From Octopus vulgaris (taxonomy: Eukaryota): a stretch of DNA of 64,000 nt. The notes beneath the pieces were generated by a model, which saw only the letters and a program-made list of their open reading frames with translations, had not been told where the DNA came from and made no database searches. Both the position numbers and the translations under genes were made by a program. This document shows, in pieces, positions 31,086-58,980 of this stretch. Each line of letters begins with the position of its first letter. Position 1 is the stretch's first letter. The stretch spans positions 17,856,001 to 17,920,000 of the forward strand of contig OX597819.1 of assembly GCA_951406725.2 (NCBI GenBank). Direction: 5' to 3'.

Positions 31086-31275
31086 GGGAGAGTTTACGAA
31101 AAAAAAACCAAAGACGAAGACAAGTGGTGTGCAAAACAAGCAGATGTATTAGTATAACGCTCAGTAATAGAAAAGTCTTTTACATTTCGAGCCTACGCTC
31201 TTCTACACAAAGGGACACAGAAAAAAAAACAAGGAAAAAAATGTGTGTAGTGGCTAACGATCTATCATGGCGACT
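31086..31275 (-). mobile_element. Family C hammerhead-bearing element (motif 31177-31212)
   Basis: CUUU-GUGUAGA-A-GAGC GUAG GCUC-GAAAU-GUA-AAAG. Embedded in (TA)n. Confidence 0.75.
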
Positions 31276-32915
31276 ACATTATATATATATATATATATAT
31301 ATATATATATATATATATATATACATACACATATATATATATGATAATAATAAGGGTAAAATTAATTAATTAATTATTAATTAATAATTCCACCAAGTAG
31401 TGATTCGGTATGTAAAAGACCGTTATCGGTAAATTTAAACTATATTTATTATAATAAGGGTTAGGCAAAAGAATTTGCTTCACCACACACCGAACTTTAG
31501 AAAGAGCAGCCCAAAAAACTAGCTATTTCTTTTTTGTTTACATATATTGTTTACATACATACATACATACATACATACATACATACATACATACATATAT
31601 ATATATATATATATATATATATATATATATATATATATATATACATATATATATATACACATTTGTATGTCTATATTGATGTCTATTCTTACGTATAGTT
31701 ATACATAAACTGTACAATTTGTACCTTTTTAATTATAAAACAGGTGAACATTAATTGAACATGCTATCACTATATATAATTTAAAAATTCACATTTTGCA
31801 ACATATTTGCAAAGAAATCTTCGACTGTAATTTCGAGGTGAATCTGGTCACTCGCTTTATCATTTCCACGGAGAAAAATAAAAAAAAAAGGCCTAACTCT
31901 GTGAAATCTTTGTGAAACTTTTAACTTTTGTAGTTGAAAAACACCACAGCAACAACGAAACAGCAAAAACACAAAAACAAACACCCACAAAAAAATGTGT
32001 TTCTGTGTCCAGACGTGTGCGTTTGTGAAAACGAATGAATGTTTAAACGAAATTGTATACATTTATGTGTCTCTTACTAGAATATAAAGAAAATAATCCA
32101 AAACTACATTCTAAATCTCTTTAACGGGTTAATATCAGGCAGTATATTAACTAAACACACCACAGCACAAAAGAAAGCTTCTAGAATTATTATGGCGATG
32201 GCGTCAACATTGTTACTAATATTTTATTAAATGATTCAATTTTATTGAAGCTAAAGAAATAGAGTAGGTTTCAGAAGACGCTTAGTTTTACATTATTAAT
32301 TGTTAAATTATTGTTGTTATTGCAGCTGTGCGGAATGTTTGAGTTTGTGTAGAATTTGAAAAAAAAAAAGGTTATAATTCCGTTCTAACTTCTTAGTTTT
32401 TAGTTTATTTCTTGCCGAGGACAACTCAAATTTACCAGGGAAAAATAATATATCTAGAAGGAGAAACTGCGTTTGAAGTAATTGGCGATACAATTCATAC
32501 GAATTCGGGGTCTTGTTCTCGTGTTATATGTACAGACGTACTGGTTTGACGTTGATGGTTTCTTCCTCTCCAGTTTCAGGTGTGTATAAGAATTGGTAAT
32601 TCAACAGTTAATCCATCTGCCGTGGATAGGTTTTTGCAGCTCAAGAACTATTAAACAGAGGGATTCAGAAATCCCTATTTTTACTAGTTCTTGAGCAGCA
32701 AAAAATCTGACTTTTGCTTTCTGTTGAAATTCCGTCTTTCTTTCTTTCAGAGCTGATGAAATAACCACCCATTCGGTACTCAGGTTGATCTCATCAGGTA
32801 TTTCACTCCTCACAGATTTCAAGGTTTGAGATTATAGTAGGAAGGATTATTATTGTTGTTGTTGTTGAAGTTGCTTCTGCTGCAGCTGCTGTTGTTGTTG
32901 CTTTTCTTTATAATA

Positions 32916-33070
32916 GGCGGTGAGCAGGCAGAAGGGTAAAAGCGTCGAACAAAATGTTTTGCAACATTTCTGCCGGTCTTTTACGTTCTGAGCTCAAATT
33001 CGGGCGAAGTATACATCGCCCTTCATCCTTTCGTGTTCGATAAAATGAAGTACCAGTCATGTACTAAACT
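32916..33070 (+). mobile_element. SINE family A, diverged
   Basis: ggcggtgagcaggcagaa head and cttcatcctttcgtgttcgataaaatgaagtaccag core. Confidence 0.75.
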
Positions 33071-33170
33071 TTACGTATTTACCCCGCCACACACTTCTAC
33101 CCGAGAGCCAAACTTCGAAACAATTATCATTTTGCATTATTATATTATTGTTGATTATTTTATTGTTGTA

Positions 33171-33636
33171 GTTAAGATTGTTTGCCAACATAATATGGCA
33201 GTCCTGGTTTAGGACGAATGTTGCCGTAATTTAGCCCCACGGGACATCGTGTCCAGCTGGCTACACACGATCTTTATATTTTCGAACAAGGGAATCTAGC
33301 ACCCCCACTCAGTTCAAAACAATATCTGGTATCGCTATTTCTGGGTTATTTCTCTTCACCAGCACAGAATAATTGTTCGTCTAGAGGTAACGCTGCCAAA
33401 TTCCAGTTCGAAATATATAGCTTTCAAAGTGACAACTAGTCACTTATTTATAAATTAAAAAATTACTATTTGTAAATCTCACAACGAGAGATATTCAGTA
33501 ACAGTACTTAGGAGTAAAGATTGTTTGCCAACATTCGTCCTAAACCAGGACTGCCATGTTATGTTAGCAAACAATTTTTACTACAAAGTACTGTTGCTGA
33601 ATATCTCATGTTGTGAGATTTAAAAGTAGTAATTTA
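33171..33636. repeat. Nested inverted-repeat structure
   Basis: 33460-33535 is inverted to 33561-33636, and 33171-33232 is inverted to 33530-33583. Confidence 0.85.
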
Positions 33637-55560: not shown

Positions 55561-56712
55561 TATATATATACAGATCATTGTTTTCGGACTAATACCGCTT
55601 CTGTTTCTAATAACGAATGTTTGGGAAATAAACGTTTTAGACAAATCAGAATGATGGTCTTAACATTAAATCCAATTCACATTTTGAGAATCTTTATGTC
55701 ATTGTCCTTGACGTTAGAGCTAAATATGGTTACATGTTTGGACATCAATAACATTATCTTTTAAAAACAATGGGAGTGTCTACGTAGCGTTGAGGGTCGT
55801 TTGGTTTTATGCTACTTGATATACAATCATGGTCTTGATTTTCAGAGCTTGCAAGAAAGAAGGATGTAGGGCGGTGGATCAATGCCTTTTTTAATATCCG
55901 GGCCTGGACCCAAACCTGGATTATCATTTTGTGGGGTGTGGAGCACCATAAGAATGTAGATCACAAGTCAATTAAAGAAAAATATTATGTTTATAGAGGG
56001 AAGGCCGTCGAGGGCCGCTAAAAGGGTGATCGGAAGCTGCCTGAGGACCAGTTAAGAACCACCGGTGTGGAGAGTTCTAGAGATTTATACAAAAGAGTTT
56101 AAAAGCGCACGCGTGTGTGTGAAAGAGAGAGAGAGAAAGAGAGAAACGGAGAGGGAGAGAGGGGGAGAGTGAGTAAGAAATGGAGAGAGAGAATGGTAAA
56201 ATAACATGTTTGTCGTTGAAGAAGTGAAATGATTTCTAAAAAATATAATTTTGAGAGAAAACAAAAAGAGAAAAGTGTGTGTGTGTGTGTGTGTGTGTAT
56301 GTGTTTTTTTTTTTTAAATGGGCAAAAACATAACAATAAACAGAGCAGGCAAACGAACATGCATGTTTAATTAAAGCGCATACTTGTATTTCATTTATCA
56401 TAATTAATGGTCTGTCTATTGATATTCGTTGATGAATCTTCTTAATTAATACATATTCGCTCAATCGTTGATGTAGCGGCAATAATCATCATCATCATCA
56501 TCATCAACATCGTCATCGGCGGCGGCGATGGTGGTTGTGGCGGCAGTGGTAGCGGCGATGGCGGGAGCGGAGGCGGCGGAGATGGCGGCTGCGGTGGTGG
56601 CGGTGGTGGCGGTAACAGTGGCGGCAGAGACATCATCAGCAACAAAATGAAGACAAACACTATGTTCAGCTTCATTCCTATTTCTATTTTTAATATTCAT
56701 TAGTCAACAGAA

Positions 56713-57570
56713 TCGTCATCATCATCATCGTCATCGTCGTCGTCGTCATCATCATCGTCATCATCATCATCATCGTCATCATCATCATCATCATCATTAT
56801 CATCATCAACATCATCGTCATCTTCGTCATAATCATCATCATCACCATCATCATCATCATCATCATCAACATCATCAACATCATCGTCATCTTCGTCATC
56901 ATCATTATCATCATCATCATCATCATCATCATCATCTTCATCATCATCATCATCATCGTCATCATCATCGTCATCTTCGTCATCATCGTCATTATCGTCA
57001 TCATCATCATCATCATCATCATCGTCATCGTCGTCGTCGTCATCATCATCATCATCATCATCATCACCATCATCACCATCATCATCATCATCATCATCAT
57101 CAACATCATCGTCATCTTCGAATTCACCATCATCATCATCATCATCATCATCATCATCATCATCATCATCAACATCATCATAATCATCATCATCATCATC
57201 AACATAATCATCATCATCATCATTATCATCAACATCATCATCATCAACATCATCATCATCATCATCATCATCAACATCATCATTATCATCAACATCATCA
57301 TCATCATCATCATCATCATCATCATCATCATCATCATCATCATCATCAACATCATCATCATCATCATCATCATCATCATCAACATCATCATCATCATCAT
57401 CAACATCAGCATCATCATCATCATCATCATCATCATCATCATCATCATCATCATCATCATCATCATCAACATCATCATTATCATCAACATCATCATTATC
57501 ATCAACATCATCATTATCATCAACATCATCATCATCAACATCATCAACATCACTATCATCACCTTCATCA
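56713..57570. repeat. About 860-bp (CAT)n microsatellite with CGT/CAA variants
   Basis: Read directly. Confidence 0.95.
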
Positions 57571-57740
57571 GCGAACTAACAGAATCGTTAGCAACCCCGG
57601 GGCAAAAGGCTGAGCTGCATTTCTTCCCATTTAACTTTCCGAATTCAGATCTCGCTGGAGTTGACTTGGCCGTTCATTGTTCCGGGGATCATCAAAACAG
57701 TGAAATCGTCAAACACTCGGATCGATGTAATCGATTTGCA
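57570..57740 (+). mobile_element. SINE family A, highly diverged
   Basis: cagaatcgttagca head and gatcgatgtaatcga end. Confidence 0.55.
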
Positions 57741-58688
57741 CCCACCACCACCACCACCGCCACGACCAAAAAATTGTTTTGAGCCTCGCCATTCACCGCT
57801 AATATGTCCTATACATACATACATACATACACGCATACATACATACATACATACATAAATACACACACACATACATACATACATACACACATGCATACAT
57901 ACATACATACATGTATGCATACATACATACATACATACACACACACACATACATACATACATGCATACATACATGCATACATGCATACATGCATACATGC
58001 ATACATGCATACATACATACACACACACATACATACATACATACATACATGCATACATACATACATTGACATGTGGTGTGGCGGTGGTGTTGGTGGGTGC
58101 TAATCGATTAAATCGATCCGAGTGTTTGACGATCTCAGCGTTTCCTATCCACTGCCCCTCCTCCTCCTCTCCTTCTCCTTCTCCTCCTCTTCCTATTCCT
58201 CCTTCTCCTCTCTCTCCTCCTCCTCTTCCCCCTCACCCCTCATCTCCGCTCTCCCCTCACCCCTCATCTCCTATCTTTCCCTCCTCTCTCTTCTCTCCCC
58301 CTCTCACTCTCCTCACAACCCCCACTCTACCCCAACCCCCAGCCGAACTCACACCCCAAATGGGCTTTCCGCACTCTCGCCCCCACCTCCCCACAACATC
58401 ACACCACACCACACTACACCTTACGACTTGACACATCACATCACAACTCACCACCCGCTGCACACCGCCCACATTACACATCATATCACAACACACCACC
58501 CACAGCACACCGCCCACACATCCATCCCCACATCTTTACACTTACACATACATACACGTATCATATCACAACACACCACCCACACACCCATCCCCATATC
58601 TCCACACCCACACATACATACACACGTCCAGACCACCAGCCCTCTTTCACACGCACATACATACTCTCTTATACACGCACGCACCATC

Positions 58689-58980
58689 GTGTTGGGGCCA
58701 CCTTCGTTTTGGGAGTCACTAGTAGGGGAGTCATCTCCCCTACTATCACTCTAGCGTCTAACGTCTGACCTCTGACCTCTGACTTCTGCCTGAAGTCAGA
58801 ACGCCGTGATAGACCATTAGCTCCTACACGCATTTTTTCCTTCCTTGTTTCTCTCCTTGTTTCTTTTCTGAATATATTTCTGTTGAAGAGCGTAGGCTCG
58901 AAACGTAAAAGACTTGTTCTATTTCTATTCCTGAGCCCCATACTAATACCTTTGTTTGTTTGTACTCCACCTGCCTTCGC
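58689..58980 (+). mobile_element. Family C element (motif 58877-58910)
   Basis: UUU-CUGUUGA-A-GAGC GUAG GCUC-GAAAC-GUA-AAA. The 5' part is homologous to the reverse complement of 43668-43751. Confidence 0.78.

Follow-up and report, generated by a model that had tools for sequence, protein, structure and literature searches.

A U6 hammerhead core in the terminal repeats of a Neptune-type Penelope-like element of Octopus vulgaris

A 64,000-nucleotide stretch of the Octopus vulgaris genome (GCA_951406725.2, contig OX597819.1, positions 17,856,001 to 17,920,000, forward strand; hereafter the window, whose own numbering is used throughout) holds five copies of a minimal hammerhead motif in which U replaces A at core position 6. 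The copies are fragments of the terminal repeat (pseudo-long terminal repeat, pLTR) of a Neptune-type Penelope-like element (PLE), and the identity of the motif as a PLE pLTR hammerhead is close to certain. The fold around U6 bears the marks of selection between subfamilies, and the inserted copies were made from uncleaved RNA spanning the uncut site. We incline, with some reserve, to the view that the U6 motif works as a strongly slowed, possibly protein-assisted ribozyme.

Motif copies in the window and their parent element

A window search with the pattern CTGTNGANGAGCNNNNGCTCGAAAC gave five matches against a chance mean of 0.01 in 100 shuffles, at 31177-31212, 43577-43612 and 51152-51187 on the minus strand and at 34979-35014 and 58876-58911 on the plus strand. 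An earlier note, made by a model from the letters alone, had described these five copies, and much of it holds. All five carry U6 and the same stem II, GAGC(GUAG)GCUC, and the minimal type I fold is present, with stems I and II around the core, a palindromic remnant of stem III and an NUH site. The position that it called free, N7, indeed reads A, C, C, G and U, although the differences lie mostly among subfamilies rather than among copies. Its consensus describes a real motif but is complete in one copy of five, that at 43577; C3 is gone at 31177 (G) and 34979 (A), stem I is damaged at 51152 and 58876, and these departures are private decays. As described, (TA)n adjoins the 3' end of four of the five copies, at 92-97 nt past the would-be cleavage site, and the proposed TA targeting is supported; the S7 copy is cut short at its 3' end and lacks (TA)n. 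Of the two motifs assigned to a sister family D, that at 39562 belongs there, with a CCGAC core, whereas the tree places that at 35246 as a decayed member of family E. Rfam covariance models returned no hammerhead match at E <= 10 on the intact copy region 43480-43750, and an Rfam scan of the whole window was dominated by microsatellite miRNA noise (best 150 of 308 rows). The features are as follows (ORF, open reading frame; UTR, untranslated region).

31086..31275, minus strand: short pLTR copy, subfamily S5 (N7 = A), from the putative start AGTCGCC to the (TA)n junction, with (TA)n on both sides
31177..31212, minus strand: U6 hammerhead motif in the S5 copy, decayed (C3>G, 15.2 C>T)
34951..35102, plus strand: 5'-truncated pLTR copy, subfamily S3 (N7 = C); motif 34979-35014, C3>A
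35142..35356, minus strand: decayed pLTR copy of sister family E, motif 35246-35280; head-to-head beside the S3 copy across (TA)n
39461..39675, minus strand: pLTR piece of sister family D (C4, A6; stem I GUUU/AAAC), motif 39562-39596
39680..39790, minus strand: sister Neptune-type ORF fragment (about residues 248-276 of protein P0002), joined to the D pLTR piece
43485..43751, minus strand: pLTR copy, subfamily S6 (N7 = C), with (TA)n flanks and the intact U6 motif 43577-43612
51059..51253, minus strand: short pLTR copy, subfamily S4 (N7 = G), motif 51152-51187
58155..58980, plus strand: longer copy, subfamily S7 (N7 = U), with a pyrimidine/CA-rich 3' UTR and motif 58876-58911; start approximate

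The parent for which the earlier note had called was found in the same genome, with intact ORFs for a reverse transcriptase (RT) and GIY-YIG endonuclease (EN). An upstream walk from six long copies led to an ORF with YIDD, FLD, a thumb, a CX4CxxC linker and GIY-YIG; at one locus (L074) this ORF stops about 770 nt ahead of the motif. A genome search with the parent protein recovered copies with a median nucleotide identity of 97.9% (maximum 99.9%), and 150 of 150 scored matches were 100% identical across 178 aa. The motif was present 364-922 nt downstream in 27 of 30 protein-selected loci, always as U6; the other three had none within the stretch examined. Eleven loci were selected for long open frames, and in eight of them two motifs 4470-4573 nt apart flank an ORF of about 1,000 codons. 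Pseudo-LTRs or partial tandems surround the ORF, the repeat standing at both ends in 8 of the 11 loci and a tandem at L117.

The parent is an EN+ PLE with a single ORF, a telomerase-like RT and, C-terminally, GIY-YIG. DKG, FLPKIHK, GRPI, YIDD, FLD and YIG are all seen in the protein, homologs at 44-63% identity occur in many animals, and P0002 matches RVT_1 above the cut-off (E = 1e-7) and GIY-YIG below it (E = 0.006), the protein being cut inside the EN. Its described features point to the Neptune clade: a CX2-5CxxC linker with CCHH in the EN (CSRPRCRTC; CISCSLC..YIG..H..H), of which the linker is common to Nematis too, and a microsatellite insertion bias. Among 90 copies chosen by a downstream anchor outside the motif (the flank-anchored set), 74 have (TA)3+ within 110 nt past the anchor, 67 of these at 50-69 nt. 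The EN segment also resembles Neptune1_Nv in a by-eye comparison with this one named reference. The family is autonomous, very young and recently active, and its RT/GIY-YIG ORFs are intact.

For family D the link is to a sister ORF that has decayed, with an identity of about 45-75% depending on the segment. It comes from 7 of 25 related loci, the window locus at 39680-39790 included, at which an ORF fragment is joined to a D pLTR piece; the D pLTR piece of the window begins at ATTCAAAAT, 110 nt ahead of the cleavage site. This chimeric form, in which an internal ORF fragment meets the putative pLTR start, is recurrent (39680-39790; L622-L626, L632, L639 and L640).

A 781-aa RT/GIY-YIG PLE from a Pfam GIY-YIG search (L120-L123) is a different family and not the parent; it has no family A motif. 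In this second PLE family ATTGG/TGACGTC motifs recur in the 3' region, and a canonical-like hammerhead match occurs in one of the four loci only, about 1.5 kb downstream. A canonical minimal hammerhead was also seen on the minus strand of L078 (around position 8773), about 230 nt past an RT ORF fragment that does not look like Penelope.

Position 6 and the constraint on the fold

The U6 state is widespread in the genome (2.8 Gb, 227 contigs). There are 20,123 occurrences of the 20-mer that spans G8 to position 15.2 and none of its reversed control, and a pattern in which the loop sequence is unspecified matches 23,625 times with U6 and 570 times with A6. In the flank-anchored set, position 6 is T in 81 of the 86 copies aligned there, C in three, a gap in two and A in none. 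Families D and E, with stem I GUUU/AAAC, give 8,103 A6 and 24 U6 matches; among the matches listed, most D copies have C4, and the typical core of E is the canonical CUGAAGA. In four contig sets (coded organisms A, B, C and D), at a 10% threshold, position 6 is a single letter, and N7 and H17 vary; as contigs only, these sets carry no information on RNA ends or expression. RF00163 has six matches genome-wide among 73 scored candidates, none from the U6 family. These six Rfam Hammerhead_1 matches (L414-L419) represent at least three other sequence types. A looser U6 pattern matched at least 120 stretches in viral contigs, which do not enter the results here.

Checked against the core C3 U4 G5 A6 N7 G8 A9 / G12 A13 A14, the motif fits at every position except A6. 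A search of 80 related metagenome loci with a descriptor left free at position 6 found sense-strand motifs that were A6 in 13 of 13 cases, one of them with C4. The copies were also placed in a tree (168 in all, 2-3 rows from outside the family included) for which the five core bases were masked and one of the young groups was subsampled. Its branching is a ladder in which an old group, mostly A6, is followed by U6 subfamilies whose N7 reads U, C, G, A, C, U and U; its bootstrap was not settled, and subfamilies were assigned by eye. Because the ladder starts from a mostly A6 group, and the sister families and all 13 outgroup motifs are A6, U6 is derived, having arisen early in the lineage.

Majority letters were compared column by column over the seven U6 subfamilies. 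S6 has two members, and S1, S2, D and E come largely from motif-selected loci. No column changed among 30 in the stems and core, against 57 of 140 in the flanks (Fisher p = 2e-6). N7 changed five times, above the flank mean rate (Poisson p = 4e-4), H17 changed three times and between A and U only, and loop II did not change at all. As the stem and core columns are kept while N7 and H17 drift, the hammerhead fold is under selection between subfamilies. The earlier note had held that a motif no more conserved than its flanks would undo its case; between subfamilies the motif is the more conserved, but in the flank-anchored set per-copy decay is about equal in motif and flanks, as expected after insertion.

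The covariation check that it had proposed came out in the same direction. In a set of octopus families and six outgroup motifs, 96.1% of cells were paired and seven of eight pairs showed double changes, a score that none of 500 shuffles and none of the slid controls reached and that is inflated by kinship among the sequences. Within the octopus families, the outer stem I pair is swapped from G-C to C-G between D/E and A.

This swap bears on whether the constraint acts on DNA, as an internal promoter past the start site, with the ribozyme a relic. The motif lies about 65-115 nt past the putative start, and the Drosophila Penelope pLTR has an internal promoter (PMC2377424). However, the compensatory stem I swap, the outgroup covariation and the free N7 and H17 suit an RNA structure and not a DNA site, and we regard a DNA-level constraint as improbable.

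GAGCG and TAATAC blocks stand 20-35 nt past every motif (for example, at 58933-58950) and are kept in families A, D and E. In some predicted folds the GAGC(G) block pairs with the 3' strand of stem II, a possible switch.

Insert ends, the RNA template and the role of the motif

In the young family 72 of 74 internal junctions of the pLTR with the 5' UTR (70 loci) have the sequence ...ccc(g)-TTATATAT-ta, and the junction coincides exactly with the point where 3' ends merge into (TA)n. The 3' ends of the copies lie at an internal UUAUAUAU matching the (TA)n target, and since junction and merge point share one position, the 3' end would be an internal site able to pair with the nicked target. The whole motif is retained upstream in 64 of the 74 junctions; one starts within 5 nt of the cleavage site, and eight (five loci, one an array) start at -97.

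The 5' ends of the inserts cluster well upstream. Among short copies of the 90-copy set, 20 of 90 start at AGTC/ATTC in one 5-nt bin, some 97-99 nt ahead of the site; three start within 5 nt of it, and no more than 13 extend upstream beyond the pile-up. In the young set, likewise flank-anchored, 10 of 30 lie at -115 to -103 and one at the cleavage site, and for D/E, in a motif-selected set, 20 of 30 lie at -111 to -96. A pattern for TA joined at -97, ill-suited to the TA/AT overlap, gave one match. Since the 5' ends cluster some 100 nt ahead of the cleavage site rather than at the site itself, the templates were uncut.

The pile-up likely marks a transcription start about 100 nt upstream of the site. 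Many full-length copies reach past this putative start, so template jumps or tandem read-through would be needed. In Drosophila Penelope the hammerhead lies at 496, in what is presumably the same clone as the start coordinate, 371. Transcription of that element is described as starting at 371 (PMC2377424).

These ends also bear on the earlier suggestion of a retrozyme-like family. An independent, non-autonomous retrozyme, spreading through hammerhead-made RNA circles, might be seen in one array of 492-nt units with five U6 motifs (L540), but the joint of this array links 5' UTR sequence with position -97 rather than with the cleavage site, and the dispersed copies run colinear with an autonomous element's pLTR. 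Non-coding tandem hammerhead units with no autonomous ORF, the mark of non-LTR retrozymes, amount to this one array among 70 junction loci. Such an origin is largely refuted and most improbable; the proposed link to Penelope stands, and the separate family gives way to pLTR pieces of an autonomous Neptune-type PLE. Each unit of L540 (G000:C8:18598500-18604500) runs from pLTR position -97 into the 5' UTR, of which it includes a part, and an inverted 5' flank accompanies the array.

Our preferred model is one in which A6 was replaced by U early in the lineage while the remaining fold was conserved. Transcription would begin some 100 nt ahead of the cleavage site. The element endonuclease would make a nick in (TA)n DNA, and UUAUAUAU, an internal tract about 105 nt past the site, would be where reverse transcription primes. 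Use of the 5' copy of this UA tract would yield the tens of thousands of solo pieces of about 200 nt, and use of the 3' copy the long inserts. Slowed cleavage is plausibly harmless or useful, because cutting between the start and the priming site would separate the latter from the remaining template and so destroy it; a slow ribozyme would be tolerated or favoured. Residual cutting may depend on the element protein or on a stem III dimer. A natural A6C core is slow in Mg2+ yet active, and fast in Mn2+ (PMC3088659, PMC7151607), and an anole PLE hammerhead cuts only with protein (PMC11167929).

Several observations weigh against this reading. Truncations at the site are 4-5 of 40 in U6 and 5 of 24 in canonical families (p = 0.48, a hand tally among the matches listed), and family E, with its canonical core, also inserts uncut; as read-through is seen in canonical-core families too, it is no proof that U6 is slower. 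The absence of change at U6 alone is not significant, as 59% of flank columns are unchanged too, and loop II is invariant beyond what catalysis alone requires. Stem II covariation comes mostly from non-octopus outgroups, stem II being invariant inside the octopus families, and the subfamilies rest on a tree with unsettled bootstrap and partly on motif-selected loci. Comprehensive mutagenesis of another hammerhead left all single mutants of the CUGA region low in activity (PMC9901934). Folding predictions indicate that U6 permits a helix, U4.G16.2/G5-C15.2/U6-A15.1, that would close the core, with a pair probability of 0.98 in S2, S7 and S8, 0.30-0.64 in four subfamilies and 0.00-0.67 in A6 copies; the G5-C15.2 pair is predicted in two natural A6 copies too (0.42, 0.67). 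In cofolding of U6 copies the double hammerhead was not the minimum-energy dimer, though such models miss tertiary cores.

The choice that the earlier note had left open, between an active core variant and a dead fold, remains as it was framed. The motif may be catalytically dead and kept as an RNA structure bound by the element's own RT/endonuclease, with a part in ribonucleoprotein (RNP) assembly, internal priming position or RNA stability. The uncut templates and the invariant loop II are in keeping with this, as are the different core change, C4, of the other big family D and the catalytic mutants of the anole PLE hammerhead, which still insert in vitro (PMC11167929). Predicted folds with U6 also favour a rod-like hairpin in which N7 and H17 pair weakly or not at all. 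However, C3, G5, G8, A9, G12, A13, A14, A15.1 and U16.1 are all unchanged, the two most variable sites are the free sites of the hammerhead, and H17 is never G in ten groups (a small sample). The anole protein-binding region, moreover, falls within the ORF's first 172 nt and is not pinned to the hammerhead (PMC11167929). Because all catalytic residues are kept and only N7 and H17 are free, we prefer residual, assisted catalysis to a dead fold, which we consider possible but the less probable of the two. More tentatively still, a hammerhead that lost catalysis could have become a protein-recognition element that places homology-primed reverse transcription at the internal UA tract. If true, this would be a natural conversion of a ribozyme into an RNP signal, and it would account for Neptune microsatellite targeting and for the great number of solo minimal hammerheads that animal genomes carry, these being start-to-priming-site run-off products.

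A fully competent alternative core, rescued by a tertiary contact (for example, of the GUAG loop II with a flank) or by metal ions, seems unlikely. U6 persists through seven subfamilies, the youngest included, loop II and the downstream GAGCG/CTAATAC are conserved, and A6C is fast with Mn2+ (PMC7151607). Yet insert ends are not in excess at the cleavage site, changes at position 6 are slow in Mg2+ (PMC3088659, PMC7151607), and U6 comes without a compensating change elsewhere in the motif.

Other window repeats and comparison with known systems

The window carries further repeats. One dispersed family lies at 11374-11592, 13749-13909, 14848-15268, 16906-17139, 32916-33065, 45258-45506 and 54989-55161, contains a 184-nt tandem unit at 14851-15218 and presumably resembles an octopus short interspersed element. 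A third dispersed family lies at 19577-20202, 23650-23972, 27091-27213, 43083-43435, 46018-46300, 49037-49204 and 63363-63694. An (ATC)n array of 860 nt spans 56712-57570, and a 47-nt inverted repeat (57695-57741 / 58097-58143) surrounds an (ATAC)n run directly upstream of the S7 copy.

Neither the class of element, nor a hammerhead in its pLTR, nor TA targeting is new. About 150,000 PLE hammerhead variants are reportedly covered by Lunse et al. 2017. The literature searched, which did not include that study or the Dfam and Repbase entries that may already hold this family, gave no description of an active PLE in high copy with a natural, fixed A6U core; two papers listed for A6U concern other RNAs. 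An octopus repeat annotation of recent date reports 31 recently active Penelope-like families, and neither 'hammerhead' nor 'ribozyme' occurs in its main text (PMC13282606). Why PLEs keep hammerheads is an open question, given their poor cutting in vitro and their dispensability for insertion in the sole reconstituted system. Here, a successful, very young family keeps the whole fold under selection despite a core change expected to cripple it. The U6 family, beside the sister C4 and canonical cores, provides a natural series for cleavage and binding assays, and the pattern of start site and UA tract offers a testable origin for solo pLTR copies and (TA)n targeting. The 23,000+ motifs found here would escape descriptors that require CUGA, so other PLEs scored as having 'no hammerhead' may deserve rechecking.

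The motif resembles the minimal hammerheads of metazoan PLE pLTRs, whose consensus is CUGANGAH, G..C, GAAAN, a palindrome and NUH (Cervera & de la Pena 2014, PMC4209133). Shared features are a U-rich flank, a short stem I, an extra nucleotide past A9, G10.1-C11.1, a palindromic CG stem III, the NUH site, two motifs per element and many solo copies, and an Acropora Neptune example (Fig. S3 there) is close to family D. In contrast, the core variant described there is U3-A8, with A6 in the rows of Fig. S3, whereas the octopus lineage is fixed for U6 in 23,000 copies. Like EN+ PLEs of the Neptune clade (Craig et al. 2021, PMC8557442), the octopus element has an RT followed by a C-terminal GIY-YIG, DKG, a CX4CxxC linker, a CCHH-type EN, partial tandems, inverted 5' flanks and a microsatellite bias; it differs in its non-canonical hammerhead core and in its 3' end, which coincides with a UA tract inside the element that matches the target.

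Poseidon PAc of Anolis (PMC11167929) shares an internal start of reverse transcription past the hammerhead, AT-rich targets and an uncut RNA template. PAc, however, starts at a site non-homologous to the cut DNA, and its canonical C3/G8 core cuts with protein, whereas the octopus start site matches (TA)n and the motif lies about 750 nt upstream of the ORF. The A6C hammerhead of phage Bcep176 (PMC3088659; PMC7151607) is likewise a natural substitution at position 6 with the remaining core intact, but it is a single example, with C rather than U and full stems; the octopus motif is eukaryotic, lacks stem III and is present in high copy. Non-LTR retrozymes (bioRxiv 10.64898/2026.07.22.740005) are also PLE-derived, with a type I hammerhead and occasional tandem arrays. 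Unlike these, the octopus copies are mostly dispersed monomers of an autonomous pLTR, and their sole array is not joined at the cleavage site.

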